Source: an uncultured Pseudomonadota bacterium
GTDB lineage: Bacteria; Myxococcota_A; Polyangia; Fen-1088
NCBI GenBank assembly: GCA_963723305.1
Contig: CAVRRT010000046.1
Coordinates: forward strand, 239-64,238
Length of the DNA stretch: 64,000 nt
Direction of reading: 5' to 3'
Below are positions 21,209-64,000 of this stretch, piece after piece; the first letter of the stretch is position 1; every line of letters begins with the position of its first letter. Both the position numbers and the translations under genes were made by a program. A model generated the notes under the pieces. It was not told where the DNA came from. It saw only the letters and a list, made by a program, of their open reading frames with translations, and ran no database searches.

Positions 21209-21280
<72 letters not shown>

Positions 21281-32276: not shown

Positions 32277-32473
32277 CCGCCTGCGCCGCACGGCCTTCGG
32301 CTGCCCCCCCCCGACAGCGTAAGCGCCCGAACATGCTGGACCGGGCGTTCAACGTGTCGGCGCCGAGCCGCGTCTGGGCCAGCGACTCACGAGGACCACA
32401 CGCCGGCCTGTCCCGTGCAATTTGTGCCGACTTGGCCGGTGCGCCCATAAAAAACCGTGCATAGGCTCCGCAG

Positions 32474-32749: not shown

Positions 32750-32801
32750 AGCCGGGAGGCGGCCTTTCCGTTGGCGCTCAAAGCGGTTTAGTATTGGCCG
32801 A

Positions 32802-33233: not shown

Positions 33234-33290
33234 CCGGGCGATCGCGACCGTGGGCTCAGCCGGTCGACAAATCGTGCACAGGATCTGAAC

Positions 33291-33527
33291 GTGTCCACAC
33301 CTCGCTTCGGTCGATCCTGGGCGGTCATCGCCGGCTTTCTCGCTCTTGTCGCCTGCGCTTTGGCCGCGGAGGGATGTAGCGGCGGGTGTCCGGCGCCAAA
33401 TCCGGGGATGTGCGCGCCCAACCTCACCTGCGTCGATGGGTTTCGCCAAACGGGTGGCGCGTCTTGCGAAAACGGCGGGTGGGTTTGCGCGCAGGTCGCG
33501 TGCACGTCCGACTCGGGTACGGACTAG
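33291..33527 (+). CDS. Small secreted Cys-rich protein (78 aa)
   Basis: Signal/lipobox-like LALVACALAAEGCSGGC, 9 Cys, GTG start. Confidence 0.45.
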   Translation: MSTPRFGRSWAVIAGFLALVACALAAEGCSGGCPAPNPGMCAPNLTCVDGFRQTGGASCENGGWVCAQVACTSDSGTD

Positions 33528-33553
33528 ACGCGCGGACGAGGAGCGGCCTCGCG

Positions 33554-33877
33554 CTAAGCCTTAACGCGCCAGCTGACGTCGCATCCGACGGTGCCCTCGT
33601 GGTGGTCGCAGGCAAACTCACCGGTGCACCGTTGCAGCGCCCTGTCAGCGCGCTCCCCGAGCTCCGCCCAGGGCTGGCCGCGCTCCAGATCGTCGGCGAC
33701 AAAGATTTCTACCCCTCGAACCTGGAGCATCCAGCCGCGGGGGTTCACCGATCGCCGGCGGAGCTTGAGAGCCTCCCGCGCGGTCGGGTCGGTGCCATCG
33801 GATCGATCAATGAGGGCAGCCATCGCGTGCTGGATGCCCTCCTCTTCGCTGGTCGCGATGTGGATGTCACTGCTCAT
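33554..33877 (-). CDS. Hypothetical protein (107 aa)
   Basis: ORF with coding-like third-position G+C. No motif recognised. Confidence 0.4.
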   Translation of the reverse strand: MSSDIHIATSEEEGIQHAMAALIDRSDGTDPTAREALKLRRRSVNPRGWMLQVRGVEIFVADDLERGQPWAELGERADRALQRCTGEFACDHHEGTVGCDVSWRVKA

Positions 33878-33975
33878 AGCTGGCCCGTCGCCTGTCGCGC
33901 ATCTTGCTGCGCTTCTTCATAGCCGACGTCCGGCGCGCGGGCGCGGATTTTACGAGGCGAGGGTAAAGGCCTCGG

Positions 33976-34134
33976 CTACATGGACGATTGGACGTTGTTG
34001 AAGGTGTTCACCACCTTGCCGCCGAGGGTGAACACCACCGCGATGATGAGACCGGCTATGGCGGCCACGATCAGCCCATATTCCACCGCCGTTGCCCCTT
34101 GCTCGTCTCGAACCAAGTCAACCAGACTTGCCAT
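33976..34134 (-). CDS. flp: Flp/Fap-family type IVb pilin prepeptide
   Basis: MASLVDLVRDEQGATAVEYGLIVAAIAGLIIAVVF. This has the G/ATAVEYGLI Flp processing motif followed by a hydrophobic helix, 52 aa in total. Confidence 0.75.
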   Translation of the reverse strand: MASLVDLVRDEQGATAVEYGLIVAAIAGLIIAVVFTLGGKVVNTFNNVQSSM

Positions 34135-37000: not shown

Positions 37001-38914
37001 TCAAGGGATGCTGATGCCGGCGCTGCACTGGCCGGCGAGGCACAGGTCGCCCGCATTGCAGCAGACGCACCCGCACTGAACGACGTCGGGGTCGCAGATG
37101 AGCGCCAGGCACTGCCCGTTGTTGCAGATTTGGCCGCACCCGCAGGTCGGTGAGCAGGTCTTGCCGGGGCAGAGGCCGGCGCTGGTGCAGGTGCCGCCGC
37201 CAGCGCAGCCGCAGGTTCCGCCGCAACCGTCGGCGCTGCCGCAGGTCCCGTCGGTGGGGCAGTGCGGGGTGCAGCAGGCGCTGTCGTACGGCGTCTCGCC
37301 CCCCGGGCAGTTGCAGAGCTTGCCGCAGCCGTCGGACATACCGCCGCGGCTGCCGTCCGAGGGGCAGTTGGGGGTGCAGCAGGCGCCGCTGTAGAGCGCG
37401 CTGCCGGTCGGGCAGGCGCAGGTGTTGCCGCACCCGTCCGGCATGCCGCCCTCGCCCGACGGACAGCTGGGCTTGCAGCAGCCCGCTTTGTAGGTGACGT
37501 CGCCGCTGGGGCAGGCGCAGGTCTTGCCGCAGCCGTCGGACATGTCGCCGCGGCTGCCGTCGGAGGGGCAGTTGGGCTTGCAGCAGGCGCCCATGTAGAG
37601 GGTGGTGCCGGTGGCGCAGCTGCAGGTGTTGCCGCAGCTGTCGGACATCCCGGCGCGGCTGCCGTCGGAGGGGCAGTTGGGCTTGCAGCAGGCGTTCTGG
37701 TAGGTGACGTCGCCGCTGGGGCAGGCGCAGGTCTTGCCGCAGCCGTCGGACATGTCGCCGCGGCTGCCGTCGGAGGGGCAGTTGGGCTTGCAGCAGGCAC
37801 CCATGTAGAGGGTGGTGCCGGTGGCGCAGCCGCAGGTGTTGCCGCAGCCGTCGGACATGCCCCCGCGGCTGCCGTCGGAGGGGCAGTTGGGCTTGCAGCA
37901 GGCGCCCTGGTAGGTGACGTCGCCGGTCGGGCAGGCGCAGGTGCCGCCGCAGCCGTCGGACATGTCGCCGCGGCTGCCGTCGGAGGGGCAGTTCGGCATG
38001 CAGCAGCCATTGGTGGCCTGCTTGCTGCCGGTCGGGCAGGGGCACTTGGCGTTGCAGCCGTTGTCCATCCCGGCGCGGCTGCCGTCCGCGGGGCAGGTGG
38101 GCGTGCAGACGCAGGCGCCCTGGACGCAGGCGCCGGCGGTGCCGCAGCTGGTGCTGCAGTGACAGGTGTCGATGCAGGCGCCGTTGCTGCAGAGCTGGCC
38201 CCCGGGGCAGGTCACGCCGGCGCACAGGTTCTCCACGCACTGACCGTTGCTGCAGACCTGCTTGGCGCCGCAGGTGACGTTGGCGCAGGGATTCGCGCCG
38301 AGGCAGGTCAAGTTGCACGCCATCCCAGGACCGCAGGCGGCATCGCAGGCGTTGAGCGCCACGCACTTGCCGCTTCCGGGGCTGCAGTACTGACCGGTCG
38401 GGCAGGTGACGCCGTTGCAGGGCTGGGCGAAGCAGCCGGCGATGCAAAGTCCGTCGACGCAGGTGAGGCCCGCCTGACAGACCTTACCAGCGCAGGGATC
38501 GACCACCGCTACGCAGGTCGCGTGACAGGTGGTGCCGGTGGCGCAGCTCATCGCCGCGGCGGCGAGACAGGGATCCGGCTGGCAGCTGCTGCCCAGGCAG
38601 ACCTGACCGCTCGGGCACTGCGCCGGGCAGCCGACCGGCGCCGCGCCGCCCTGTCCGGCCACGCCGCCGTCGGATCCGTTCCCGCTGGCGCTGCCGGTGA
38701 CGCTGCCGCTTCCTTTGCCGGTGGTCGAGCCGCCGCCGAGCTTCGGATTGTCGCCCGAGGAGCCCGCCGCGCCACCGCCGGTGCCGAGGGACATCGACTG
38801 CGTCGCCGACTGCTGGAAACCGCATCCGAGCGCCACCAGCGCCAGCAACGAGAGCCCGGAAAAAAACCCGACGGTGGCGCGAGGAGCGAAAACGATCCGC
38901 ATATCGAATTTCAT
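37001..38914 (-). CDS. Large Cys-rich repeat lipoprotein (EGF-like modules plus nine 35-aa six-Cys repeats, three RGD motifs)
   Basis: MKFDMRIVFAPRATVGFFSGLSLLALVALGCG lipobox at ATG 38914, then a G/S linker, CxxxxCxxGxxC modules, and 9x CKPNCPSDGSRGDMSDGCGKTCACPSGDVTYQNAC-type units. Confidence 0.8.
   Translation of the reverse strand: MKFDMRIVFAPRATVGFFSGLSLLALVALGCGFQQSATQSMSLGTGGGAAGSSGDNPKLGGGSTTGKGSGSVTGSASGNGSDGGVAGQGGAAPVGCPAQCPSGQVCLGSSCQPDPCLAAAAMSCATGTTCHATCVAVVDPCAGKVCQAGLTCVDGLCIAGCFAQPCNGVTCPTGQYCSPGSGKCVALNACDAACGPGMACNLTCLGANPCANVTCGAKQVCSNGQCVENLCAGVTCPGGQLCSNGACIDTCHCSTSCGTAGACVQGACVCTPTCPADGSRAGMDNGCNAKCPCPTGSKQATNGCCMPNCPSDGSRGDMSDGCGGTCACPTGDVTYQGACCKPNCPSDGSRGGMSDGCGNTCGCATGTTLYMGACCKPNCPSDGSRGDMSDGCGKTCACPSGDVTYQNACCKPNCPSDGSRAGMSDSCGNTCSCATGTTLYMGACCKPNCPSDGSRGDMSDGCGKTCACPSGDVTYKAGCCKPSCPSGEGGMPDGCGNTCACPTGSALYSGACCTPNCPSDGSRGGMSDGCGKLCNCPGGETPYDSACCTPHCPTDGTCGSADGCGGTCGCAGGGTCTSAGLCPGKTCSPTCGCGQICNNGQCLALICDPDVVQCGCVCCNAGDLCLAGQCSAGISIP
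37165..38108 (-). repeat. 105-bp (35-aa) in-frame tandem repeat x9 with alternating A/B subtypes (210-bp super-repeat); coordinates approximate
   Basis: Subtype A is ..GKTCACPSGDVTYQNA and subtype B is ..GNTCGCATGTTLYMGA. They alternate in units 2-6. Confidence 0.85.
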
Positions 38915-39180
38915 CGGCGCTCTCGACGGTGAGGTGAGGAAAATAAGTTGGCGCCAAACAACGACCTCGACCCAGATCACCGCTGGTGGTGGCGGGCGCA
39001 CAGGTGGGCAGGCCGGGAAGTGCGCCAGCGTCGCGCCGCGCTCGACGCGCCTGCTCACGTCAGGGCGCTGACGGCCACCGTCGCGACGGCGATCGTTGCC
39101 GCTCGCCGCCACGAACCTGACGACGAACGGCGCCCGCCCCGGCCGTCGAAACAGCCTCCGGCGGCGGCTGGCGATTCGGC

Positions 39181-47285: not shown

Positions 47286-49208
47286 GTGTGGTTTCGGCGC
47301 GGAGCGAGGTGTGTAAAACCTGTCGGCAGTGCTAGCGTTCGAGATCTGACCCTCCGGACCGAGCTTTCGCTGGTGCTGTCGTCGCTGCTGGTCGTTTCGA
47401 TCGGCCTGGCGGGCGGCACCACCATCTATCAGTCGGCGCGCACCATGCGGCGGGAGCTGACGACGGAGTACCAGCTGTTCGCCGAGAACCGGGCCTTCGC
47501 GCTGCGCGACAACTTCGAGATCCTCGAAGACGAGCTGAAGCGCCTGGCGCTCCTGCCCGAGATGAACCCGACCGATCCGGACTATCTGCAGGAGGAGCAG
47601 ATTCTGTCCGGCGCGCACGCCCACTCGGTCCTCTACAACACCGCCGTCCTGCTGCTCGACCGCGAAGGGCACTGCGTCCGCTCGGTCCCCGATCGGTCGG
47701 CGTTCCGCGGGCAGTCATTCGGCGACCGCGCCTGGTTCGCGGCCGTGCAGGGGGGCGCCGCGGGCCCGCTGTTCCGGATCACCGACGAGCCGGCGCTGGG
47801 GCAGACGCTGAAGATCGTCCAGCCGGTGATCCGGGGCGGGGCGTTCTCCGGCGCCCTGGTCGGCATCATCGCGCTGGGGGAGAACAACCTCATCTCGCCG
47901 ACCTTCCACGAGAACCTGCCGCCTGACACCGACGCCGTCCTGGTCGACCAGGAGGGGCAAGAGGGGGAAGAGGGGCAGGTCATCTATCCCCCCGGACGTC
48001 CGCTGCCGGCGATGGGGTCGAGCTGGTCGGAGGCGATCACCGCCTCCTCGCGCGGCGGCAGCGGAACGCTGGTCGGCGATGTGCGCGGGCAGAAGACGCT
48101 CTTTGCCTATTCTCCCGTCGGCGGGGGGACGAAGTACGCGGTCGTGTTCTCCTGGCCCTGGCGGACGCTCACCGCCAACATCGAGCAGCAAGGGGCGACG
48201 CTGGCCGGCGTCCTGGTGTTCGGTATCATCGTGGCCACGCTGGCGGGCGTCCTCTTGTCGGCCTACCTGTCGCGGCCGCTGCAGGCGCTGGCCGACGGTG
48301 CGATCCGCATCGCGCGCGGGGAACGGATCCCGGCGACGTCGGCGCCGCGGCCGGCCGGGACCGAAGAGATCTCCACCCTGCTCGGCGCGTTCGAGCACAT
48401 GGAGCAATCGATCCAGAAGCGGGATCAGGAGCTGCGCGAAGCGGCCGGGATGCTGGAGCAGCGGGTGCACGACCGGACGCAGGAGTTGGTGGCGACGCAG
48501 GCGGCGCTGGTCGAGGCCGAGCGCTTCGCGGCGATGGGGAAGACCTCCGCGGCGATCGCGCACGAGTTGAAGAACGCCCTCAATGGCCTGGGGATGGCGG
48601 TCGAGCTCATCGCCCAGGACCCCGCCAACACGACCCGGGTGGCCCGGCTGCGGCCGCAGGTGGTCGGCGAGATCGCGCGGCTGCGCGACGTGGTCGACTC
48701 GCTGCTCTCGTTCTCGCGTTCGCCGCGCATCGATCGCGCCCCCGCCGATCTGGCGGCGGTGGTGGCGCGCGCCGCCGAGGCGGTGGCCGATCTGGTCGCC
48801 GACCGCGGCGTGGCGTTGACGGTCAACGCGCCGGCCACGCTCCCCGTCCGCTGCGACGCGCACAAGGTCCAGGGGGTGATGGTGAACCTCATCAAGAACG
48901 CCGTGGAAGCGGGGCGCGTCGTCACCGTCACCGTCGGCGCGCGCGATGGCGAGGCGATTATCGAGGTGACCGACGATGGCCCGGGCCTCTCCCCGGAGGC
49001 GCGCGCGCACCTGTTCGAACCGTTCTTCACCACCAAGCCCAACGGCACCGGCCTCGGGCTGCCGACCTCGCGCCGGTTCATCGCGGCGCACGGCGGCACC
49101 ATCGAGGTCGGCACCTCGGCGCTGGGCGGCGCGCTGTTTCGGGTCAGGCTGCCGCTCGACGTCGGTGTTGAAACCGAGGCGCCGGTGATGGAGGCTCGTT
49201 CCACTTGA
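47286..49208 (+). CDS. Sensor histidine kinase (TM, extracytoplasmic Cache-like domain, HAMP, HisKA, HATPase)
   Basis: H box AAIAHELKNALNGL and G box GTGLGL. The start is uncertain: GTG 47286 is the first plausible start before the TM segment LSLVLSSLLVVSIGL. Confidence 0.85.
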   Translation: MWFRRGARCVKPVGSASVRDLTLRTELSLVLSSLLVVSIGLAGGTTIYQSARTMRRELTTEYQLFAENRAFALRDNFEILEDELKRLALLPEMNPTDPDYLQEEQILSGAHAHSVLYNTAVLLLDREGHCVRSVPDRSAFRGQSFGDRAWFAAVQGGAAGPLFRITDEPALGQTLKIVQPVIRGGAFSGALVGIIALGENNLISPTFHENLPPDTDAVLVDQEGQEGEEGQVIYPPGRPLPAMGSSWSEAITASSRGGSGTLVGDVRGQKTLFAYSPVGGGTKYAVVFSWPWRTLTANIEQQGATLAGVLVFGIIVATLAGVLLSAYLSRPLQALADGAIRIARGERIPATSAPRPAGTEEISTLLGAFEHMEQSIQKRDQELREAAGMLEQRVHDRTQELVATQAALVEAERFAAMGKTSAAIAHELKNALNGLGMAVELIAQDPANTTRVARLRPQVVGEIARLRDVVDSLLSFSRSPRIDRAPADLAAVVARAAEAVADLVADRGVALTVNAPATLPVRCDAHKVQGVMVNLIKNAVEAGRVVTVTVGARDGEAIIEVTDDGPGLSPEARAHLFEPFFTTKPNGTGLGLPTSRRFIAAHGGTIEVGTSALGGALFRVRLPLDVGVETEAPVMEARST

Positions 49209-50605
49209 AACCAACGGTGCTGGTGATCGACGACGAGAAGACGTTCCGCATCGTCGCCGAGGAGGCGCTGGCGGCCGAAGGCTTCCTGGTCACCACGGCG
49301 TCGAGCGGGCATGCCGGCCTGGCGGCCTGGCAGCGCGAGCCATGCGACCTGGTGATCCTCGATCGGCATCTCCCCGACACCGACGGGATCGTGGTCCTCG
49401 AGGCGATGACGCGCGAGGCGCGCGAGCGCAACCTCGACACGCTGGTGGTGATCGCCACGGCCTACGCCGACGTGGCCAGCGCGGTGCAGGCGCTCAAGCT
49501 GGGCGCGTTCGACTATCTGTCGAAGCCGCTGCAGCTCCCCGAGTTCGTGGTGACCGTCGGCAAGGCGATCGAGGCGCAGCGGTTGCGCGCCCAGGTGCGC
49601 CAGCTGGCCGGGCGCGCGCAGGCGGCGATGGGTGACTTCGTGGTCGGCGCCTCGGCCCCGATGCAGAGGGTGATCGACATGGTCGACAAGGTCGCCGAGG
49701 CGCCCGACACGACGGTGTTGATTCAGGGCGAATCGGGGACCGGCAAGGAGATCATCGCCGACCTGATCGCCCGCCGGACCGTGGGGCGCAAGGACGGCCC
49801 GTTCGTGGAGATCAACTGCGCCTCGGTCCCCGAGAACCTGCTGGAGAGCGAGCTCTTCGGCTACGAGCGCGGCGCCTTCACCGACGCCAAGGCGCAGAAG
49901 CGGGGCTTGTTCGAGGAGGCCGACGGCGGGACGCTGCTGCTCGACGAGGTCGGTGACATGCCGATCGCCACGCAGGCCAAGCTGCTCAAGGTCCTCGAGG
50001 AGATGACCTTCCGCCGGCTGGGCGGCACCCGCGATCTGTCGGTCAACGTGCGGGTCGTGGCGGCCACCAACAAGGAGCTGGCCGACGAAGTGGAGCGGGG
50101 CGCCTTCCGGCTCGACCTCTACCACCGCCTCGACGTCTTTCACATCCGCGTGCCGCCGCTGCGCGAGCGCCCCGAGGACATCCTGCCGCTGGCGACGCAC
50201 TTCTTGGCCCGCTTCGCCACGCGCATGCGCAAGCCGGCCGCCAAGTTCGCCCCCGAGACCGAGCGCCTGCTGCTCGCTTACGACTACCCCGGCAACGTCC
50301 GCGAGCTGCGCAACGTGATCGAACGGGCGGTGATCCTCTCGACCCGCGAGGTGATCGAGACCGACTGCATCGTGCTGTCGGGGCCGTCGCGCGCGGGCGC
50401 CGCTGGCCCCGTGGCGCCGACACCGTCGTTCTTCGCCGTCGACGTCGACGACGCCGGGAAGCCGCCCGATCTGGAGCGGCTCGAGCGCGCCTACATCGCG
50501 CGCCTGTTGGATTTCACCGCCGGCAACCGGACCGCCGTCGCCCGCCTGCTGGGCGTCTCGTACCCGACCGTCGCCAAGAAGATCGCCGACTACGGTCTGG
50601 CCTAG
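49205..50605 (+). CDS. Sigma-54-dependent response regulator (NtrC family: REC, AAA+, Fis-type HTH)
   Basis: VLVIDDE...DLVILD receiver, GESGTGKE Walker A, ESELFGYERGAFTDA (GAFTGA-type loop), and a C-terminal HTH. The TTG start overlaps the kinase stop (TTGA). Confidence 0.93.
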   Translation: MKPTVLVIDDEKTFRIVAEEALAAEGFLVTTASSGHAGLAAWQREPCDLVILDRHLPDTDGIVVLEAMTREARERNLDTLVVIATAYADVASAVQALKLGAFDYLSKPLQLPEFVVTVGKAIEAQRLRAQVRQLAGRAQAAMGDFVVGASAPMQRVIDMVDKVAEAPDTTVLIQGESGTGKEIIADLIARRTVGRKDGPFVEINCASVPENLLESELFGYERGAFTDAKAQKRGLFEEADGGTLLLDEVGDMPIATQAKLLKVLEEMTFRRLGGTRDLSVNVRVVAATNKELADEVERGAFRLDLYHRLDVFHIRVPPLRERPEDILPLATHFLARFATRMRKPAAKFAPETERLLLAYDYPGNVRELRNVIERAVILSTREVIETDCIVLSGPSRAGAAGPVAPTPSFFAVDVDDAGKPPDLERLERAYIARLLDFTAGNRTAVARLLGVSYPTVAKKIADYGLA

Positions 50606-51487: not shown

Positions 51488-52174
51488 TCAGGCGGCGAGA
51501 CCATTCTTCCCTTCGTCGAGCGTCACCGTGTGAACGCCCGAGATCTGAGCCTCGCCGAGCGCGCGCAGGACCCCGGCGGCGTCCTGCGTCTCGCCGAGGA
51601 CCGTCTCGATCACCAGGCGCCCCGAGCCGGGGCCGGCGTCGGGCAGCTCGAGCACGCGGGAGCCGGGGAACGTCAGCTTGATCCGCCCCCAGGCGTTGCG
51701 CGCGTCCTCGACCTGCACCGCCACGCGCACCAGACGCAGCCGCGCCCGCCGGCCGACGTCAAACAACGCCAGCACGATTCCCGCGAACAACGTGGCCACC
51801 ACCGCCATGGGGACCGCGCCCAGGCCGCAGGCCATGCCGAGGCCGATCATCACGAACATCACCGCGGCATCGCGGGTGTCCTTGATCCCCGAGCGAAAGC
51901 GGATGAAGCCCCCCAGGCCAACCAGGCCGAAGGCGCGCGCGGTGCTGTGGCCGATCACCACCACCATGAGCGCGCCCGCCACCGCGATGAGCGTCTGCGC
52001 CTGGGCCACCTCGCGCGCCGGCGGCAGCGCGTTCGGGAGGAGGCGCCGCCAGGGGCGAAACCCCAGGAACGCGCCGAGCAGCGCGGCGATCGCCAGGCGG
52101 ATGAGCACGATCTCGAAACGCGCGGTCCCCATCGTGTCGAGGCCGAGCGTGTCGTTGAGATCGAATGGCGACAT
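51488..52174 (-). CDS. DUF4956-like membrane protein (usual partner of bacterial VTC-domain proteins)
   Basis: 228 aa, N-terminal multi-TM region plus soluble C-terminal domain. Family assignment is from memory of DUF4956 architecture and the VTC neighbourhood. Confidence 0.6.
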   Translation of the reverse strand: MSPFDLNDTLGLDTMGTARFEIVLIRLAIAALLGAFLGFRPWRRLLPNALPPAREVAQAQTLIAVAGALMVVVIGHSTARAFGLVGLGGFIRFRSGIKDTRDAAVMFVMIGLGMACGLGAVPMAVVATLFAGIVLALFDVGRRARLRLVRVAVQVEDARNAWGRIKLTFPGSRVLELPDAGPGSGRLVIETVLGETQDAAGVLRALGEAQISGVHTVTLDEGKNGLAA

Positions 52175-52176
52175 GC

Positions 52177-53922
52177 TCAGGCCGCCATCACCGACCGCGT
52201 GAGGTTGGCGCCGGTGGCGATGATGGCCGCCTGCTTGAGCAGCGAGATCTGGTCGGCGAACCCGCGCAGCGCGCGGGCGAGCAGATCCTGCCCGCGCGCG
52301 CCGCTCACCAGCACGCCCAGGCTCTTGACCACGGTGGGGGGCCAGATCTCCAGGCAGCTCTCGCGGATCTCCCAGGCCGTCTGGTGGTCGAGGCCGATCA
52401 TCGAGTCGAGCGCCTCGCGGCAGCGCAGAGCGGTCCCGGTGCGCAGCGCCCAGGCGCGCGCGTCGTCCATCCCGGCGATCGTCGCCAGCACCGCCTTGGG
52501 GGCGCGGCTCGCGGCGCGGTCGCGCCAGAGCCAGGCCCGATCGCCGGTCAGCCCCTTCAGCGAGACGACGGCGGCGACCGGCGCGGCGTCGCGCGCCAGC
52601 TTGCGCAGCTTCCAGGCCTCCGGGCTGTCGATGCCGGTCACCGAGCGCGCGATGGCGCGGGCCCGAAAATAGTTGGCGGCCGCGCGGCCGGGACCGCCGC
52701 GATCGGCGAGCCAGCGCGTTCGGAAATCCCAGGCGCGCGGCACGTCGAGCAGCGCCAGCGAGCCGAGCACCGACTCCGGGACGCGCGGATAGAGCTCGGC
52801 GCGCAGGGCCCAGGCGGTCTCGTCGTCGAGCCCCTCCAGGCTGGAGGCGACCTCGGCGGGGGCGATGTCGGCCAGCAGCTCGCGCAGAGCCCAGGCCTCG
52901 CTCGCCTCCGCCGCCATGTCGGTGAGCGACAGCGCCACCTCGGCCGGGGCGGTTTCCAGCAGCAGCCGGCGCAGCTGCCAGGAGATCGCGTCGGAGAGCC
53001 CGCGCAGGCCGCGGGCGACGATCCGCGGCGCCACCGCCGCCAGGTCGAGGCGCCGCTTGTCGATCCCGACCCCCGCCGTCCCCGCCAGCACGTACGCCGC
53101 CAGCTCGGGCTCGGTGAGCGCGCGCCGATCGACCCAGGCCAGGAACGCCGCCAGCGCCGTGCGGACGTCGTCGATCGGCGCGGCGGGGGCGAGCGCGAGG
53201 GCGCGGGCGGGGGAGGGACCGGACGCCGGAGCGACGGCCGCCGCCAGACGCGACCGTGCCTCGCGCAGCGCCGCCGGGCGATCGGTCCGTGCCCCGATGA
53301 CGGCGTCGACGATGGCGGCGACCACCCGCCCCAGCTCAGCGTCGGTGTTCTCGACGAGGACCCAGCGATCGGGGTCGCGCCCGGCCAGCGCGCGATAGCC
53401 GGCGCGCAGGCGGAGCTGAAGACCGCTGCCGGTCAGCCCCTTGCGCGAGACAGGGCGGCGATCGGGCGCCAGGATCTTGGCCACCTTGCGGCGCCCGCGC
53501 GCCACCGACGGATCGACATCGATCAGGAAGACGAGATCCGGCCAGAGCCCGCCGGCCGCCGCGGCCAGCACCGGGGCGGTCTCCGCGTCCGGAAGATCGC
53601 GCCCCGCCTGCGCCAGGACCTCCGCGGTGTAGAAGTAGCGATCGGCGATGACCACGTCCGCCCGCGCCAGCGCCGGGCGGAGCACCTCGTCGGCCAGCTG
53701 GACCTCACGCGCCACGTAGAGCATCAGCTCGGCCCGGGGCGAGAGGGCCATGTTGCGCGCGTCGCGACAGAAATCGCGAATCCCCTGCGTCACCTTGGAG
53801 GCGAACGCCCCCTCCTCGCGCAGGTGCTCGACCGTCAGGCCGCGCTCACGCAGCTCCTTGGCGACCCGGTTGGAGATGGTCGTCTTTCCGCTGCCGTCGA
53901 TTCCTTCGAAGACCACGAACAT
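52177..53922 (-). CDS. Thymidylate kinase (dTMP kinase) domain fused to a ~390-aa helical repeat domain
   Basis: MFVVFEGIDGSGKTT P-loop and the ADRYFYT (DRY/F) motif. The remainder is ~30-aa repeats with an AW-x-LR core. ATG 53922 follows GAGGTGA. The stop lies 2 nt before the next gene's start. Confidence 0.8.
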   Translation of the reverse strand: MFVVFEGIDGSGKTTISNRVAKELRERGLTVEHLREEGAFASKVTQGIRDFCRDARNMALSPRAELMLYVAREVQLADEVLRPALARADVVIADRYFYTAEVLAQAGRDLPDAETAPVLAAAAGGLWPDLVFLIDVDPSVARGRRKVAKILAPDRRPVSRKGLTGSGLQLRLRAGYRALAGRDPDRWVLVENTDAELGRVVAAIVDAVIGARTDRPAALREARSRLAAAVAPASGPSPARALALAPAAPIDDVRTALAAFLAWVDRRALTEPELAAYVLAGTAGVGIDKRRLDLAAVAPRIVARGLRGLSDAISWQLRRLLLETAPAEVALSLTDMAAEASEAWALRELLADIAPAEVASSLEGLDDETAWALRAELYPRVPESVLGSLALLDVPRAWDFRTRWLADRGGPGRAAANYFRARAIARSVTGIDSPEAWKLRKLARDAAPVAAVVSLKGLTGDRAWLWRDRAASRAPKAVLATIAGMDDARAWALRTGTALRCREALDSMIGLDHQTAWEIRESCLEIWPPTVVKSLGVLVSGARGQDLLARALRGFADQISLLKQAAIIATGANLTRSVMAA

Positions 53923-53932
53923 CGTTCTCACC

Positions 53933-54772
53933 TCACGCAGCGACGAAGGATCCCAGGGCAAACGGCGGCGATTCGGGGGCGGCGGACGCGGCGCGGCCGG
54001 CGCCGCTGGGCACTTCGGCGCCGTGGCCGAAGGCGGTCATTCCCATGCGGAACTTGGAGAAGGAGTCCGCCGGCTGCAGCGCCTCCAGCGCCGGCCCCAG
54101 CCAGAGCGGCATCTCGCCGCAGTGCTTGACCTCCAGGACCCGCGCGGGAAAGGCGGCGACCACCTCGCGCGCGCGCGGCGCGGCGGCGTCGCCCGCCGCC
54201 CCGATCGGTTGCGGCCGGCAGAAGGTCAGATGCTCGTCGAGCGTGATGCGGACGCGGCGTCCTTCGGCGGTCAGACAAAGCCGCCGGTACCAGGTCGCCA
54301 GGCGGGGGGCCATGGTGGGGAGCGCCAGCTCACGGGCGATCGCCGCCAGCGCGCCGTTCGGCGCCGTCTCCTGTTCGAGGGCGCCGCGCGCGTCGACGAG
54401 GCGCGCGATCTCGGACGGCGTGGCGGCGAGGCGCACCTTGCTGCGCGCGTCGCCGGCGTGCTGCTTGAGCTCGATGAAGGCGACGCCGGAGAGGACCGGA
54501 TCGTCCTTCGGCGCGGCCGCCACGGCGTACTCACGCACCCGGAGCCGGCGCGCCGGCTCTCCTTCGCCGGAGCGGAAGTAGCCGAGGTCGTCGGTGTCGA
54601 GGTAGGTCGTCCGCGTGTACGAGATCGGCCGCGCAGGGTCGTAGATCTCGACGGCGGCGCGCGGGGCGATCGCGTCGAGAAAGCGCCGCATCTCGGCGCG
54701 CGAGAGCAGAAACCGCAGCTCGTGATCGAACGGATCGTTACTCGGCGTTGACGTTTCGACGGCACCACCCAT
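53933..54772 (-). CDS. VTC-domain (CYTH-like, polyphosphate-polymerase-type tunnel fold) protein
   Basis: ELRFLL...SYTRTTYLDTDDLGYF...RRLRVREY...FIELKQH pattern of bacterial VTC domain proteins. ATG 54772 follows GGGAGGTGG. Confidence 0.75.
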   Translation of the reverse strand: MGGAVETSTPSNDPFDHELRFLLSRAEMRRFLDAIAPRAAVEIYDPARPISYTRTTYLDTDDLGYFRSGEGEPARRLRVREYAVAAAPKDDPVLSGVAFIELKQHAGDARSKVRLAATPSEIARLVDARGALEQETAPNGALAAIARELALPTMAPRLATWYRRLCLTAEGRRVRITLDEHLTFCRPQPIGAAGDAAAPRAREVVAAFPARVLEVKHCGEMPLWLGPALEALQPADSFSKFRMGMTAFGHGAEVPSGAGRAASAAPESPPFALGSFVAA

Positions 54773-54923
54773 ATCGCCCCACCTCCCGCTTGAGATACCT
54801 GCCCGGACGGAAACCGCAGCGCACGAGCGTGGGCATGTGCAAGTCAAATGCCGATCGCCGCGGCGCGCGTGTGCCGCGCCAGGGCCGGTCGGCCCGGGCG
54901 GCCGTTACCGCGGCGTAATCCGC

Positions 54924-56801
54924 TCAGCCGGGCGGGGTTACCGTTCGTCGATGGTTCAGACGATCGGCAAGACCAGACGAGCGTTCGAGCGGCCGCGCGG
55001 CCGCCCGCGCGACGAGCGCGCGGCGTCCCACCACCACCATCGATCGGCGCGCCCGGGTCACCGCGGTGTAGACCAGCTCGCGCGAGAGAAGCGGCAGGTC
55101 GACCTCGGGCAGGATCAGCGCCGCCTGATCGAGCTCGCTCCCCTGCGACTTGTGGACCGTGGTCGCGTAGGAGACTGCCAGGGCACCGCGCAAGGTGGCG
55201 GCCGGGAAAAGCGCCAGCGTCGTCTCGCGCGGAAAGGCCACCAATGACTGCGGCGGGCCGGCCCCGGCGTCCCCCGCCCCGCGCGCCAAGAGAACGATCC
55301 CCTGATCGCCGTTCATGAGGCCCCGGTCGTAGTCGTTCTCGGTCATCATGATCGGCGTGCCGGTGGCGAGATCACCGCCGGCGGCGTCGCGCCCCGCTCG
55401 TGCGCCGCCGGCGGCGAGGGCGGCGTTGATGCGATCGGAGCCGGTCGGGCCGACGCGGGTGACGGTCAGCAGGCGTGCGCGCGGTGGCGATCGAGGAGCG
55501 CGCCGGCCAGGGCGAGCGGCGGCGCGATCGAGCCCGCCGCGGTCGAGGTGGAGGACGCCGGCCGCGCCGATCTCGCCAGCGCCGGCACGACGTGCGTCGC
55601 GTACCACCGGTCGACGAAGGCGGCGACCAGCCGACGGCCGTTGAAGTCGCGGGCGTCGGGCTCGCAGAGCTCGAAGCCCACGAACCTGAGCGCGGCGATC
55701 CCGGCTTGGCCGGCGGCCGGTCGCGCGGGGGCGCTTCCCCGCGGCGATCCTGTGCGCGGCCTCGAGCACTCCGCGCCGGCGGGATCGTCCGGGCTCATGC
55801 GGTGGCTCTCGGTCAGCCGGAGGGCCAAGGGGCCGAGATCGCGGAAGACGCTGCCCGCCTCGATCGCCGGGAGCTGGTCGGCGTCGCCGATCAGCACGAG
55901 GCGCGCGTCCGGACGCAACGCGCGCGAGAGCTGCTCGAGGAGCACCAGGTCGACCATCGACGCCTCGTCGACGACGACGGCCGCGTGCGGCAGCCGGTTG
56001 TTCTCGTGGTGGCGGAACTCGCCGCCGCGCAGCGACCGCTGCGCAGAGTCTCCGAGCAAGCGGTGCAGGGTGCCGGGGGCCGGCGTCGCCTGGCCCTCGG
56101 CCAGCAGCGCCTCGGCGATCCGATGGGCCGCCTTGCCGGTCGGCGCGGCGACGGCGATCGCCTCGGCGGCGATTCCCGCGGCACGCCAGGCGCGGACGAT
56201 GCCGCCGATGAGCGCCGTCTTCCCGCTGCCGGGCCCGCCGGTCACCACCGTCAACGGCCGCGCCAGGGCGGCCGCGATCGCCGCGCTCTGCGCGGGCGTC
56301 CAGCGGCGCTGCGTCCCCTGGCCCGGGGGAGCGGCGGCCGCCAACGCCCCTTCCGGATCGGAGAGCGCCGGCGCGGGGGTGGCGATCCGCGCGGCCAGCG
56401 CCTCGGCCAGGCGCTCTTCGAGCCGCAGGTCGCGCTCCTGATAGAGGTACTCGCCGTCGACGATGAACGGCCGGAAGTCGCCCGGGCGCCCGACCAGCGG
56501 CGCCAGCGCCGGATTTTCCGCCAGCCCGGCGACGAGCGCGGCGACCGCCGCGCGATCGTCGGGGCGGGCCCCCAGCCGTTCGAGGCGCCCGTCGAGCCCG
56601 CCACCGAGCCCGAGCCGCGTCGCCCCCTCTCCGCGCCTGCACGAGGCCAGCACCAGCAGCGCGAAGGCGCGGCGCGCGGGACGGCAGGTCGACCGGCCAG
56701 CCGGCGGCCTCGAGGGCCAGGTAGAGCGACGCCTCGTCGACGTCGTGGGCGGCGAGCTCCCCCGCCCAGGCGGGCGGCCAGCGGCGGTCGCGCGCGCTCA
56801 C
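54924..56801 (-). pseudogene. recD: recD (exodeoxyribonuclease V alpha) copy 1, needs >=2-3 frame switches
   Basis: The N-terminus VSARDRRWPPAWA... is in one frame. TVVTGGPGSGKT, VVVDEASMVD and LIGDADQLP are in a second frame. The C-terminus ...SYATTVHKSQGSE...VYTAVTRA returns to the first frame. Confidence 0.8.
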
Positions 56802-59800
56802 GTGGTCTCCTCCGCACCGAGCTTCTCGGCGATTCCTGGCCCCAGGCCTCACCTCGCCTAACTCGGCCGGCGGCTGCGGACCGCGGCCGGCATGCCGCGC
56901 ACGAAGAGGTAGAGCGTGCCGCCGAAGCGCGCTTCGTAGCTGGCTGCGTCGGTGACGCCCAACATCTGCACGAGCGCGAGCGCGTAGAGCTGCTCCTGCA
57001 GGGCGTAGTTCCTCGCCACGTGCGCCTCGATGACCGCCGCGTCCCAGGCCGGCAGGCGATCGGTCTTCCAGTCGCCGAAGTAGGCCCGCCCCTCGTGCTC
57101 GAAGAGAACGTCGACGAATCCTTTGACGAACCCCCGATCGGCGCCGCCCGCGGCGGCGGGGAAGGGGAAGAGGAACTCCATCTCGCGGGCCACGCGCGTG
57201 GCGTGCGCGAGGCCGGGGATGGCGCCACCCACGATCGGCAACGGCGCGGTGAGCGCCGCGTAGACCAGGCGCGCGGCCGCGAAGGGCTGGCGCGGATCGC
57301 GGCCGTGTCGGCGCAGGGTCGACTCGATCATCGCGTGGATCTCCGGCTGCGCCGTCCAGCTCTCGAACCCGGCGGCCGCGCGCAGCCCCTCGAGCGGCGC
57401 CTTCTCCAGCAGGTCGTGCAGGAAGATGCCGGTGCGCGCGCCGCCCGGCAGTTGGTCGTCGCCCAGCGGCGGCGCGTCGGTCGTCTCGTCGTGGATCTCG
57501 GTGGGCGGACGATAGCCGCCTTCCGACTGTTTGATTCGGCTGTACGAGGTGAGCGTGGGGCCGAGCCGCTCCCGGCGGAGGCGCCCCAGCGCCGCTTCGG
57601 GCACCGCCGTCTCCTTGTCGGCCTCGGGGCGCCAGCTGAAGAACGGCAGCGTGACGCGCGGGCGGTCGCCGTCGCCGGCGCCGCGTCGATCGATCAGGAC
57701 GTCGCGCGTCTCGAAGTGTCGTCGTTGCGTCTCGTCGGCGCGCAGCGCACGCAGCCGCCGGTTGACGTGGGGGTATCCGCCGGTGATCTTCCAGCGGTCT
57801 TCCTGACCCGGCCGCCATCCAAGGCTCCTCGCCCTCGGCTTCACCCGAGAACGGCAGGTAGAGCCGCCGCCGGGCGCGGGTCAGCGCCACGTAGAACAGG
57901 CGCTGGTCTTCGCTGTCGCGCTCGCGCTTGATGAGGTCGACGATCGCCTTGCGACGAGGTCGCCCGGCGGTCGCCAGCGCGGGCGCCCGCTTCGACGTAC
58001 TGGCGCACGCCCCGGTTCGGCGAGGGGCTGAAGCCGCCGTAGAGAAAGACCACCTCGGCCTCCAGCCCCTTCGCCTTGTGCATGGTCATGATCTGGACGG
58101 CGTCGCGATCGCTCTCGAGCCGCTGCACGTTGCCCTCCTCGGCCTCCGGCACCACCAGCTTCTCGCACAGCGCCGAGAGTCGGCGGACGACGTCGCCGAG
58201 CGGCCGCGCCACCCGGGCGGCCTCGGCCGCCAGCATCTCCAGGAGGTGGCGGATGTTCGTGAGGCGCCGCGCGCTCTCTCCCAGGAACAGCTCGCGCAAG
58301 ATGACGCCGCTGTCGTCCAGGATGCGCGCGTAGAGCACGTCGAGCGGCTCGCGTGGCGGCGACCGCGTGCCAGTCGGCCAGGCGCGCATAGAGCGGATGC
58401 TCGGGGCCCGCGCCGACGGCCGCCGGCAGATCGCCCAGGGCCAACCCGAAGAACGGCGTCAGCCAAGCCCGCAGCCGCTTGGCGCGATCGTGCGGGTCGG
58501 CGATGGCGCGCAGCAGATCGCGGATCTGCCGCGCCTCGGGCGACAGATAGAGGCCCTCCTGGTTGTAGAGCACCTGGGGGACGCCGCGCGCGGCGAGCGC
58601 GGTCGCCGCGGCCCGCCTCCCGCCAGGTCCGCGTGAGCACGAAGATCTCGCGGGCCGGCGGCGCGTTCGGCGCGCTCAGCAGGCCGGCGATCTCGTCGGC
58701 GATGGCCCGGGAGAGCCCCGCGCGCACGGCGCGCATGGGCAGGCGCGCCACGTCCCCCTCGGCGGTCACGCGCAGGAGCGTGAGCGCGGCGCGCGGATCG
58801 CCCCGACCCGGCCGCGCGCGCCGCCGTAGGTCACCGGGGGCCGGTAGTCGCCGCCGGCGCTGAAGAACGGCTCGGCGACCTCTGATCGAGGATTGCGTTG
58901 TAGGCGTCGATCACGGCCGCGGTGGAACGAAAGTTCCGCGACAGCGCGTGCGGTCTCCGGCGGCGCGAGCTCGGCGCAGGCCTGCGTGAAGGTGGCCACG
59001 TCGGCGCCGCGGAACCCGTAGATCGACTGCTTGGGATCGCCGACCAGGTAGAGCGGGCTCGCCACCCGCTCCCGCAGATCGTCCGGAAGATCTGCCACTG
59101 GACCGGATCGGTGTCCTGAAATTCGTCGACGATGGCCAGCTTGAAGCGGCGGCGCAGCGACGCTGATGAGCTCCGCGCCGCGCGGACCCTGGAGCGCGTC
59201 GCGCACCAGCTCCAGCATGTCGTCGAAGTCGTAGAGCCCGGCCGCCGGCTTGCGCGCCGCCAGCCGTTCGGCGACCGGCGGCACGAACTGCTGGGCGATC
59301 GCCGTCTCGAGAGGGACCGCCGCGTCGGCCAGCTCGGCGACGGCGCGGGCGACCTCGGTCGGCTTGAGGTTGAAGCGCTCGACCACGAACGCCAGCTGGT
59401 CCTCACTGGAGACGGGAACGTCGAGCGCCGCCAGGAAACGCGCCGTGTTTCCGTCGCCCTCCAGCTTGCGCGCCGCCGCGTGCACGGTCAGGAGGCGCTT
59501 CCTCACCGCGGCCGCCGAGCGTCCGCCCACGCCGATCTTGATGGCCAGATCGATCGTTGCGGGCGTGAAGCTGGCGAAGGCGCGGGCGGCGGCGGCGACG
59601 CGCGCCGGATCGAACGTGGTCGCCCAGCGCGCGCGAAGTTGATGCGCCTGGTAGAGCAGCCGCTCCAGGTTGGCGACCGATCCCCCCGCGCCAGGTAGGC
59701 CTCGAGGTAGGGGGCCTGCTCGGGCGCGACGGCCAGCTGCTGGCGCAGGACCTCGGCGAAGGCGGCCGCGAACGCCGCCCGGCTCTCGACGCTCTGCTGA

Positions 59801-59943
59801 ATGAGCAGTCGTCCGCCCGCGAAGGCCTGTTCGGTGAGGACGCGCTGGCAGAACGAATGGATGGTGGAGATCGGCGCACCGTCGATGGCGCGCGCGGCGG
59901 CGGCCAGGCGGAGACGCGCGCCGTCGTCGATCGCCCAGGCGCG
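55929..59943. repeat. Left arm of large inverted repeat (in-window counterpart of 59985-64000; outer limit approximate)
   Basis: It is the reverse complement of the right arm. It is near-identical from ~59276 to 59943 and diverged, with indels, further out. Left-copy homology actually continues to 54924. Confidence 0.85.
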
Positions 59944-59984
59944 GTCGCCGGTGACTGGCTTTGCCGGCTCTCCCGCCAGGCGGA
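56798..59984 (-). pseudogene. recB: recB (exodeoxyribonuclease V beta) copy 1, 5'-truncated and needing >=10 frame switches
   Basis: RecB blocks are spread over minus-strand ORFs 59503..60069, 58766..59530, 58831..59406, 58086..58769, 57881..58573, 57841..58389, part of 54924..57890, and 56858..57844. The blocks are ISTIHSFCQ, IVDEFQDTD, YLVGDPKQSIYGFRGA, MTMHKAKGLEAEVVF, ALTRARRRLYLPF, and the nuclease motif GFVDVLFEHEGRAYFGDWKTD. There is no Walker-A N-terminus. Confidence 0.8.
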
Positions 59985-62900
59985 CGCGCCTGGGCGATCG
60001 ACGACGGCGCGCGTCTCCGCCTGGCCGCCGCCGCGCGCGCTCGACGGTGCGCCGATCTCCACCATCCATTCGTTCTGCCAGAGCGTCCTCACCGAACAGG
60101 CCTTCGCGGGCGGACGACTGCTCATTCAGCAGAGCGTCGAGAGCCGGGCGGCGTTCGCGGCCGCCTTCGCCGAGGTCCTGCGCCAGCAGCTGGCCGTCGC
60201 GCCCGAGCAGGCCCCCTACCTCGAGGCCTACCTGGCGCGGGGGGATCGGTCGCCAACCTGGAGCGGCTGCTCTACCAGGCGCATCAACTTCGCGCGCGCT
60301 GGGCGACCACGTTCGATCCGGCGCGCGTCGCCGCCGCCGCCCGCGCCTTCGCCAGCTTCACGCCCGCAACGATCGATCTGGCCATCAAGATCGGCGTGGG
60401 CGGACGCTCGGCGGCCGCGGTGAGGAAGCGCCTCCTGACCGTGCACGCGGCGGCGCGCAAGCTGGAGGGCGACGGAAACACGGCGCGTTTCCTGGCGGCG
60501 CTCGACGTTCCCGTCTCCAGTGAGGACCAGCTGGCGTTCGTGGTCGAGCGCTTCAACCTCAAGCCGACCGAGGTCGCCCGCGCCGTCGCCGAGCTGGCCG
60601 ACGCGGCGGTCCCTCTCGAGACGGCGATCGCCCAGCAGTTCGTGCCGCCGGTGGCCGAACGGCTGGCGGCGCGCAAGCGGGCGGCCGGGCTCTACGATTT
60701 CGACGACATGCTGGCCCTGGTGCGCGACGCCCTCCGGGGGCCGCGCGGCGCGGAGCTGGTGAGCAACCTGCGGCGGCGCTTCAAGCTGGCGATCGTCGAC
60801 GAATTCCAGGACACCGATCCGATCCAGTGGGAGATCTTCCGGACGATCTGGGGAGAGGGTGGCGGCCCGCTCTACCTGGTCGGCGATTCCAAGCAGGCGA
60901 TCTACGGATTTCGGGGCGCCGACGTGGCGACCTACATCGCCGCCTGCGACAGCATCGCGCCGCCGGAAGATCGGCACGCCCTGCGGCGAAACCACCGCTC
61001 CACCCGGGCCGTGATCGACGCCTACAACGCGATCCTCGATCAGAGCGCCGAGAACCCCTTCTTCACCGGGAGCGTCCGCTACGACGCCCCCGTCAGCTTC
61101 GGCGGCGCGGACGACGTGCCGGTCGAAGCGTCCGCCCCCATCACTCTCCTGCGCGTGACCACCGCCGACGATGAGGTCGGACGCCTGCCGATGCGGGCGG
61201 TGCGCGAAGGGCTGGCGCGCGCCATCGCCGGCGAGGTCGCCGGGCTGCTCGCCGCCGGCGACCCGCCGCGCGCCAGCGACATCTTCGTCCTCACGCGCAC
61301 CTGGATCGAAGCCAAGGCCGCGGCGACCGCGCTCGCCGCGCGCGGCGTCGCGGCGGTGATCTACAACCAGGAGGGGTTGTACGGTTCACCGGAGGCGCGG
61401 CAGGTGCGCGATCTGCTGCGCGCCATCGCCGATCCGCGCGATCCGGCCAAGCGGCTGCGCGCCTGGCTGACCCGTTCTTCGGGCTCACGCTGGCGATCTC
61501 CCTGCCGCGGCCGCCGCCGATGGTGACCATCCGCTGTTCGCGCGCCTCTTCGCCTGGCACGCCGCCGCCGCCCGCGAGCCTCTCGGGCGGCTCTACGGAC
61601 GCATCCTCGAGGAGAGCGGCGTCATCTTGCGCGAGCTGTTCCTGGGAGAGAGCGCGCGCCGCCTGGTGAACATCGGGCACCTCCTGGAGATCCTGGCGGC
61701 GGAGGACGCCCGGGTGGCGCGGCCGCTCGGCGACGTCATCCGCCGACTCTCGGCGCTGTGCGAGAAGCTGGTGGTGCCGGAGGCCGAGGAGGGGAACGTG
61801 CAGCGGCTCGAGGGGGAGCGCGACGCCGTCCAGATCATGACGATGCACAAGGTGAAGGGGCTGGAAGCGGAGGTGGTCTTTCTCTACGGCGGCTTCGGCC
61901 CCTCGCCGAACCGGGGCGTGCGCCAGTACGTCGAAGCGGGCGCCCGCGTGGCGACTGCCGGGCGACCTCGTCGCAAGGCGATCGTCGACCTCATCAAGCG
62001 CGAGCGCGACAGCGAAGACCAGCGCCTGTTCTACGTGGCGCTGACCCGCGCACGGCGGCGGCTCTACCTGCCGTTCTCGGGTGAAGCCGAGGGCGAGGAG
62101 CCTTGGGATGGCGGCCGGGGTCAGGAAGACCGCTGGAAGATCGCCGGCGGATACTCCCACGTCAACCGGCGGCTGCGTGCCCTGCGCGCCGACGAGACGC
62201 AACGACGACACTTCGAGACGCGCGACGTCCTGATCGATCGACGCGGCGCCGGCGACGGCGGCCGCCCGCGCGTCACGCTGCCGTTCTTCAGCTGGCGCCC
62301 CGAGGCCGACAAGGAGACGGCGGTGCCCGAAGCGGCGCTGGGGCGCCTCCGCCGGGAGCGGCTCGGCCCCACGCTCACCTCGTACAGCCGAATCAAACAG
62401 TCGGAAGGCGGCTATCGTCCGCCCACCGAGATCCACGACGAGACGACCGACGCGCCGCCGCTGGGCGACGACGAGCTCCCGGGCGGCGCGGGCGCCGGCG
62501 TCTTCGTGCACGATCTGCTGGAGCACGTTCCGCTCGAGACGGTGCGCGGCGCAGGCGGGTTCGAGGCCTGGGGGGCGCGGGCGGACGTCCGCGCGTTGCT
62601 CGAGTCGACCCTGCGCCGACACGGGCGCGATCCGCGACAGCTCCTTCCCGCCGCGCGCCTGGCCTACGCCGCGCTCACTGCGCCGCTGCCGGTCGTCGGA
62701 GGCGTCATCCCCGGCCTCTCCCACGCCGCGCGCGAGGCGCGCGAGATGGAGTTCCTCTTCCCCTTCCCCGCCGCGGCCGGCGGCGCCGATGGGGGTACGT
62801 GAAGGGATTCGTCGACGTTCTGTTCGAGCACCAGGGGCGGGTCTACTTCGGAGACTGGAAGACCGACCGCCTCCCCAGCTGGGACGCGGCGGTCATCGAG

Positions 62901-63131
62901 GCGCACGTCGCCAAGAACTACGCGCTGCAGGAGCAGCTCTACGCGCTGGCGCTGGTGCGTATGCTCGGCATCACCAGCGCCGCCGACTACGAGGCCCGCT
63001 TCGGCGGCACGCTCTACCTGTTCGTGCGCGGCCTTCCGAGCGCGGTCCGCAGCCGGCGGCCGACGTTCGGCGAGATCGAGGCCTGGGGCCAGGAGATCGC
63101 CCAGCGGCTCGGTGCGGAGGAGACGACGTGA
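59985..63131 (+). pseudogene. recB: recB copy 2, 5'-truncated at the palindrome junction, with >=4 single-base frame disruptions
   Basis: RecB homology threads through plus-strand frames 59857..60423, 59961..61526, 61627..62802 and 62103..63131. The disruptions are at the G run 60239-60244, the C run 61471-61473, CTGGCG at ~61490-61495, and the G run 62791-62795. Confidence 0.8.
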
Positions 63132-64000
63132 GCGCGCCGGAGCGACGGTGGCCGCCCGCCTGGGCGGAGGTGCTCGTCGGCCTCGACGTCGACGAGGCGG
63201 CGCTGCATCTGGCGCTGGAGGCCGCCGGCTGGCCGGGCGCTCTCGCCGGTCCCGCGCGCCGCGCCTTCGCGCTGTTGGTCCTCGCCTCGTGCACGGCGCG
63301 GATGGAAGGGGCGACGCGGCTCGCGCTCGGTGGCGGGCTCGACGGGCGCCTCGAACGGCTGGGGGCCCGCCCCGACGATCGCGCGGCGGTCGCCGCGCTC
63401 GTCGCCGGGCTGGCGGAAAATCCGGCGCTGGCGCCGCTGGTCGGGCGCCCGGGCGACTTCCGGCCGTTCATCGTCGACGGCGCGTACCTCTATCAGGAGC
63501 GCGACCTGCGGCTCGAAGAGCGCCTGGCCGAGGCGCTGGCCGCGCGGATCGCCACCCCCGCGCCGGCGCTCTCCGATCCGGAAGGGGCGTTGGCGGCCGC
63601 CGCTCCCCCGGGCCAGGGGACGCAGCGCCGCTGGACGCCCGCGCAGAGCGCGGCGATCGCGGCCGCCCTGGCGCGGCCGTTGACGGTGGTGACCGGCGGG
63701 CCCGGCAGCGGGAAGACGTCGCTCATCGGCGGCATCGTCCGCGCCTGGCGTGCCGCGGGAATCGCCGCCGAGGCGATCGCCGTCGCCGCGCCGACCGGCA
63801 AGGCGGCCCATCGGATCGCCGAGGCGCTGCTGGCCGAGGGCCAGGCGACGCCGGTCCCCGGCACCCTGCACCGCTTGCTCGGATACTCTGCGCAGCGGTC
63901 GCTGCGCGGCGGCGCGTTCCGCCACCACGAGAACAACCGGCTGCCGCACGCGGCCGTCGTCGTCGACGAGGCGTCGATGGTCGACCTGGTGCTCGTCGAG
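63128..64000 (+). CDS. recD: recD copy 2 (partial, continues beyond the window); uninterrupted for the 291 codons visible
   Basis: GTG at 63128 overlaps the recB stop (GTGA). Hand translation gives VSAPERRWPPAWAEVLVGLDVDEAALHLALEAAGWP...TVVTGGPGSGKTSL...VVVDEASMVDLVLVE with no stop. Confidence 0.85.
   Translation, partial: MSAPERRWPPAWAEVLVGLDVDEAALHLALEAAGWPGALAGPARRAFALLVLASCTARMEGATRLALGGGLDGRLERLGARPDDRAAVAALVAGLAENPALAPLVGRPGDFRPFIVDGAYLYQERDLRLEERLAEALAARIATPAPALSDPEGALAAAAPPGQGTQRRWTPAQSAAIAAALARPLTVVTGGPGSGKTSLIGGIVRAWRAAGIAAEAIAVAAPTGKAAHRIAEALLAEGQATPVPGTLHRLLGYSAQRSLRGGAFRHHENNRLPHAAVVVDEASMVDLVLVE

Follow-up and report, generated by a model that had tools for sequence, protein, structure and literature searches.

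The head-to-head recB-recD pair at the end of the window (the whole stretch of DNA analyzed here, 64,000 bp from the metagenome assembly of an uncultured Polyangia bacterium, Myxococcota) is very probably a contig-terminal fold-back misassembly with a chimeric, indel-rich consensus, and not a real feature of the genome. A preliminary description of this DNA had read the pair as a palindrome of at least 8 kb that inactivates recBD, and had itself named an assembly fold-back artifact as the competing explanation; it is the artifact that the evidence favors. Against a real palindrome stand the position of the repeat at a contig end, its indel-rich consensus, the presence of tracts from a second lineage, and the intact operon in relatives.

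Geometry and gene content of the inverted repeat

Comparison of the window with its own minus strand by BLAST yields one inverted match, that of positions 55934-64000 to themselves (91.05% identity over 8112 columns, with 636 mismatches, 70 gap openings, and a score of 11122 bits), and a repeat search of the window breaks this match up into a run of collinear inverted pairs. The two arms, 55934-59943 and 59985-64000, are reverse complements of each other and meet at 59943/59985 around a spacer of 41 nt or, when two mismatches are tolerated, at 59949/59979 around a loop of 29 nt. The center of the repeat folds into a perfect stem, with the spacer at 59944-59984 as its loop, and the spacer region holds a 4-bp inverted microhomology (59946-49 and 59979-82) as well as a small hairpin. 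Sequences of the ONT ligation adapter and of the SMRTbell adapter have no match anywhere in the window at up to 3 mismatches.

The inverted duplication reported in the preliminary description is thereby confirmed as a property of the assembled sequence, together with the 41-nt spacer, which the repeat search found again, and a 2-nt indel near the center (TG at 59886-59887, absent from the right arm). The same description took the arms to be near-identical, which does not hold over their whole length: arm-to-arm identity is a mosaic, in which blocks of 100% alternate with blocks of 68 to 90% (Table 1).

The source contig, identified through the window's own proteins P0001 and P0014, which lie on it, measures 65,312 bp, so that the window covers almost all of it. 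At most 1.3 kb of right arm can therefore lie outside the window, which limits each arm, the inverted copy included, to about 5.3 kb. Searches of contig collections for this source contig had no success: protein scans reached at most 70% amino acid identity among genome contigs and 75% among metagenome contigs, and an exact 60-mer had no match among the latter. On the left side, unique flank extends for 55 kb. The right arm runs out of the window toward the nearby contig end, and no unique sequence follows it within the window. The extra arm is thus located at a contig terminus and is no longer than a read.

Table 1. Features of the window and of the inverted repeat at its right end
Feature	Position	Strand	Description
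Intact flank ORFs			LeuRS (898 aa); SdhA-like flavoprotein; two Pkinase-AAA_16 proteins (about 1330 aa)
Further intact flank ORFs			Histidine kinase; sigma-54 activator
VTC, thymidylate-kinase-like, DUF4956	51488-54847	minus	Intact, 3' of left recD; Pfam matches
Left recD (native copy)	54924-56801	minus	Full length, about 626 codons; broken by indels
Left recB	56801-59943	minus	Residues about 94-1179; without Walker A; two-lineage mosaic
L008-like tract 2	56650-57550	minus	84% identity to L008
L008-like tract 1	58300-59350	minus	Left arm vs L008, 88-95%; left arm vs right arm, 71-85%
Shared frameshift	59682-59687, mirrored at 60239-60244	C6 on plus	G6 where relative L003 has G7
Spacer (hairpin loop)	59944-59984	none	41 nt, unique; minus-strand recB frame reads LAGEPAKPVTGD
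Right recB (fold-back copy)	59985-63131	plus	Residues about 94-1179; 5 indel events
Right recD	63128-64000	plus	First 291 codons, in frame; remainder cut off by window edge
100% block 1	left 59864-59300; right 60062-60660		From arm-to-arm comparison
100% block 2	left about 57770-57500; right about 62150-62450		From arm-to-arm comparison
100% block 3	left 56600-55934; right 63330-64000		From arm-to-arm comparison

Both arms carry the same gene series, a recB that lacks the N-terminal Walker A region followed by recD. Homology to RecB begins at residue 94 in each arm, and after frame correction each retains the helicase core (DEFQDT and GDxKQxIYxFRGA) and a C-terminal PD-(D/E)XK nuclease; the recD starts, at 56801 on the minus strand and 63128 on the plus strand, overlap the recB stop in a GTGA junction. 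In frameshift-aware alignments, the left recB is 71% identical to a composite RecB of relatives (P0002 plus P0020) and holds about 15 indels of 1 to 2 nt, and the left recD shows 75% amino acid identity to RecD of L021, a Polyangia/Myxococcota relative described below, and holds about 7 indels (at sites including about 56684, 55767, 55739, 55554, 55514, and 55482). The indels of the right recB fall at 60040, 60236, 61471, 61493, and 62790, and its frame-corrected product is matched by the TIGR00609 recB model with an E value of 4e-107, which is under the curated cutoff of that model. The right recD is 76.5% identical to RecD of L021 and is matched by TIGR01447 recD (E value of 4e-32). A protein search with RecD recovered from this locus the left-arm fragment P0121 alone (395 aa, a piece of the left recD copy), with no entry for the right-arm recD.

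Of the features that characterize a RecBCD locus, the window has the RecB helicase core with its nuclease and a recD directly 3' of recB, and it lacks uninterrupted frames, the Walker A motif (GxGKT), and an adjacent recC. Searches by tblastn with the proteins of a relative found no match in the window to recC or to RecB residues 1-100 (best E value of 0.29). An alignment of RecB residues 14-90 across the repeat center was rejected as spurious, the GxGKT motif being absent from that stretch.

With respect to gene content, the preliminary description proves accurate in what it lists: a RecB without its Walker A region and then RecD in both arms, overlapping GTGA starts of recD at the positions given above, neither recC nor a RecB N terminus in the window, and a spacer that extends the minus-strand recB frame. 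What it overlooked is the damage to the frames, since both copies are broken by many indels of 1 to 2 nt.

The native locus and its counterparts in relatives

The closest relatives of these genes come from Polyangia/Myxococcota MAGs, at 65 to 76% amino acid identity. In L021 (CAWFVU010000002.1, a contig of 2.29 Mb), recC (1164 aa, with domains PF04257 and TIGR01450), recB (1181 aa), and recD (633 aa) are intact and overlapping, and the same recC-recB-recD order occurs in L005 (DATNDC010000131.1), which is an Illumina assembly; in both genomes, recC lies directly upstream of recB. The order VTC, thymidylate-kinase-like gene, and DUF4956 gene after recD is shared by L001, L005, and L021. Because the genes downstream of the left copy match those of the relatives, the left copy is the native one, which agrees with its earlier designation as the parent. 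The comparison of the orthologous locus that the preliminary description had proposed thus returns a single intact recC-recB-recD operon, the outcome that it had linked to an assembly artifact.

The window resembles the operon of L021 and L005 in its RecB (superfamily 1 helicase motifs plus a PD-(D/E)XK nuclease), its RecD, the GTGA junction between the two, and the VTC, thymidylate-kinase-like, and DUF4956 genes that come after the left arm. It differs from that operon in the absence of recC and of RecB residues 1-93, which include Walker A, in its frameshifts, and in the presence of a second, inverted copy. In its true form, the locus is most likely a recC-recB-recD operon of the ordinary kind, with VTC and further genes after it; in the assembled sequence, the inverted copy takes the place of recC and of recB codons 1-93.

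Consensus quality and the source of the differences between the arms

The region at 55.4-63 kb contains 25 or more small indels, compared to none detected at 1-54.9 kb. Throughout this flank, the third-position GC phase of long genes is constant and the large ORFs are intact, with full-length Pfam coverage, and homopolymers of 7 nt lie within intact ORFs; a suspected frameshift at about 44350 turned out to be a Gly/Thr-rich linker in an intact ORF of 536 aa. The clean flank therefore confines the drop in consensus quality to the duplicated zone, at about 55.4-63 kb. Small indels of 1 to 2 nt number about 20 in the left arm (4.5 kb) and 5 in the right arm, and 21 of the 22 arm-to-arm indels are of this size, with no large one. 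Deletions that are private with respect to every homolog occur in the right arm and likewise in the left, and the G6/G7 frameshift (Table 1), which is common to both arms, sits within a block in which the arms are 100% identical. The type of indel (small deletions and a homopolymer undercall), together with the fact that recB gene calls are also broken in related long-read MAGs, suggests a long-read consensus, the platform itself being deduced indirectly.

The substitutions tell the arms apart by lineage. The arms differ by substitution at 341 sites; L008 (DASRLC010000025.1, another Polyangia MAG) agrees with the left arm at 287 of these, with the right arm at 28, and with neither arm at 26. 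L021, L003, and L004 lean in the opposite direction, with 179 to 183 matches to the right arm and 115 to 119 to the left. From the ratio of 287 to 28 it follows that the left arm is right-arm sequence patched with tracts of a second lineage (Table 1). Over 58300-59200, the left arm is 90.7% identical to L008/L091 and at most 79% identical to any other relative. For the right-arm mirror of tract 1, the upper limit among relatives is about 80% identity, and for the flank and the identical blocks it is about 81%; the arm-identical blocks show just 55 to 75% identity to L008. In tract 2, right-arm-type bases are interleaved more finely than in tract 1. At 58354, the left arm has a 1-nt insertion of L008 and lacks the compensating deletion that L008 has 4 nt later, this position being a switch point between lineages that creates a frameshift.

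Several properties of the substitutions bear on where they arose. Counted by codon position, those between the arms are distributed 86:85:163, with a dN/dS of 0.45, and none of them is a nonsense substitution. Once indels are removed, each arm encodes an authentic RecB, and columns that are invariant among 20 relatives are violated at 0 of 151 positions in the left arm and 2 of 153 in the right. The third-position bias, the lack of nonsense changes, and the preserved invariant columns together indicate that the substitutions arose in functional genes and not in truncated copies. Substitutions private to the left arm have a similar bias (8:3:14 by codon position), and the second-lineage allele is therefore real and not noise. 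Random sequencing error was dropped as a source of the substitutions on account of the third-position bias and of the 84% of differences that match L008.

The second-lineage tracts occur in the left arm only, and their borders do not track the similarity of the right arm to L008. Cross-mapping within the most conserved windows was considered as the factor setting these borders and was dropped, as the right arm and L008 are no more similar within the tracts than outside them.

Probable fold-back assembly, its rivals, and what follows

The sequence of events that we envisage begins with a fold-back molecule or read, or a hairpin in the assembly graph, that would have extended the contig beyond about recB residue 90. 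The second half of a fold-back read is the reverse complement of its first, and such a read would thus have supplied a second, inverted recB-recD of at most 5.3 kb. A single real locus would then have had two places to which its reads could map, with the consequence that the duplicated zone was poorly polished and small deletions and insertions may have been left in both arms after ambiguous mapping. Reads of a related species in the sample were probably recruited to one arm, the consensus of which would have adopted their sequence there. This polishing account does not fully explain why the tracts are confined to the left arm or where their borders lie.

Fold-back artifacts make up about 0.55 to 0.6% of ONT genomic DNA reads; the defining feature is a pair of segments that map to opposite strands no more than 200 bp apart, and in most cases no adapter separates the two (PMC12870357). 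The repeat described here has its breakpoints on opposite strands at 59943 and 59985, well inside that distance, and resembles the artifact reads of Heinz, Meyerson & Li 2026 (PMC12870357) in that its halves derive from the same place, no adapter is present, and the arm is of read scale, in this case at a contig end. It is unlike those reads in being an assembled consensus as opposed to a single read and in its arm-to-arm identity of just 91%, which results from second-lineage tracts in the consensus of one arm. A further likeness is to the palindromes generated by whole-genome amplification (Pacasus; bioRxiv 10.1101/173872 / PMC6218980), which are chimeric products of strand or template switching with a short loop or none; unlike the material of that study, the present sample gives no sign of amplification.

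The strongest competitor, which we nevertheless regard as unlikely, is a real and recent fold-back inversion in the genome of this Polyangia bacterium or of part of its population, produced by a template switch at a short inverted repeat in recB, with loss of recC and the recB 5' end and with arms of 4 to 5 kb, the indels and patches being secondary assembly noise. The clean junction, at which a native 41-nt loop and not an adapter separates the arms, is just as compatible with a real template switch, and both the 4-bp microhomology and the small hairpin in the spacer are in its favor. Moreover, beneath the foreign tracts, both arms consist of identical right-arm-type sequence, as a recent event predicts. 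A true inverted repeat would likewise divide the mapped reads between its arms and impair polishing, and a contig could terminate there. Genuine inverted duplications that arise at short inverted repeats have the geometry seen here, with two long arms around a short unique spacer and microhomology at the point of turning, but they are supported by independent molecules and by unique flanks on both sides, whereas here the second arm meets the contig end and the consensus is chimeric. The contig-terminal position, an inverted arm no longer than a read, and a right arm that is followed by no unique sequence in the window all speak against the real event, and fold-back reads are a common and documented artifact. 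In Escherichia coli, palindromes are processed by SbcCD and RecBCD, and in bacteria with SbcCD a long palindrome is unstable when its spacer is short, which also counts against a real fold-back. Loss of RecBCD would in addition be costly, and the relatives all retain an intact operon. There is little probability that a wild Polyangia population carries a palindrome of about 8 to 10 kb and is recBCD null, with related-species tracts taken up later by one arm; if this were true, the case would be an uncommon natural example of a long palindrome, with a spacer of 41 nt, whose host had disabled its own pathway for palindrome repair.

Highly improbable, by comparison, is a join of two co-occurring strains, brought head to head by a hairpin path through strain bubbles of the assembly graph, in which the left arm would be a natural recombinant allele with L008-like tracts and the right arm the allele of the other strain. 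The 8:3:14 distribution of private substitutions agrees with this, in that the tracts would be a real allele with about 91% identity to L008/L091, and the exact blocks with their shared homopolymer error resemble collapsed repeat edges used twice. Yet the switch within 4 nt at 58354 and the finely interleaved bases of tract 2 are a better fit to a mixed consensus built column by column, and a fold-back link at the center is still required. Such a join is also an artifact, and the verdict on the palindrome is unchanged by it. Barely credible at all is a long-standing genomic palindrome with arms that diverged in situ and were partly made identical again by gene conversion: although the alternation of 100% and 68-90% blocks resembles conversion tracts, the divergent blocks of the left arm are nearer to L008 than to their partner arm (Table 1), L008 has the left-arm base at most of the differing sites, the constrained pattern of substitution is unlike that of promoterless copies without Walker A, and the larger deletions typical of pseudogene decay are absent among indels of 1 to 2 nt.

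If, as we consider most probable, the repeat is a fold-back misassembly, gene calls at 55.4-64 kb (including P0001, P0014, and P0121) are unfit for analyses of pseudogenes, of recBCD loss, or of recombination. The case is instructive for quality control, in that an inverted duplication at the end of a metagenome contig can mimic an old, mosaic palindrome of pseudogenes, and comparison of the arm-differing sites with other genomes reveals the mosaic to be a consensus of two lineages. For the bacterium itself, the biological weight of the finding is small: it has an ordinary recC-recB-recD operon that the assembly truncated and doubled back upon itself.

The turn of the recB-recD fold

The spacer that separates the inverted recB-recD arms contains a small imperfect hairpin with the core GGC-TTT-GCC, and a 4-bp inverted microhomology lies at the turn of the fold. 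Snap-back could be nucleated by either the hairpin or the microhomology, in the test tube or in the cell.

recB and the neighbors of recD in related genomes

Among related metagenome-assembled genomes whose contigs are named contig_N, recB is likewise broken up, being annotated as multiple separate genes whose tails run out of frame (database proteins P0003, P0007, and P0009), as at locus L001 (ENA ERZ25039562 contig_12102, positions 9532-13067), and small indel errors seem common in these high-GC assemblies. In L008, a locus of another Polyangia genome (DASRLC010000025.1), positions 8015-8560 match 50090-50598 of the window, part of the sigma-54 activator; the activator homolog appears to follow recD directly, and the cluster of VTC, thymidylate-kinase-like, and DUF4956 genes is missing there.

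Composition and other features of the window

The first 300 nt are AT-rich (roughly 45% GC by eye; 63-76% in the remainder), look noncoding, and may represent the start of the contig. The tandem repeat looks, by eye, rich in Cys codons on its minus strand; a Pfam search with the plus-strand ORF at this position returned no match. Two very large Ser/Thr-kinase proteins with AAA_16 domains (each about 1330 aa) are encoded by unbroken ORFs, the first additionally carrying TPR repeats. The second lies, together with the Pro-kumamolisin ORF, in a region of about 22000-34000 where GC content drops to 63-65% after the tRNA-Thr(CGT) gene, and this region could be an island adjoining that gene.

Coordinates of features in the window
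Feature	Position	Strand	Description
Ser/Thr kinase 1	5337-9344
tRNA-Thr(CGT)	21209-21281
Pro-kumamolisin ORF	22489-25833	minus	1114 aa; activation domain
Ser/Thr kinase 2	26571-30548	plus	1325 aa; Pkinase+AAA_16
Tandem repeat	37195-38123		105-nt unit, about 7.7 copies, 75-84% copy-to-copy identity
ORF at repeat	37262-38932	plus
Sigma-54 activator	49205-50605
VTC to DUF4956 cluster	51488-54847	minus
Spacer with hairpin	59945-59984
Microhomology	59946-49 and 59979-82
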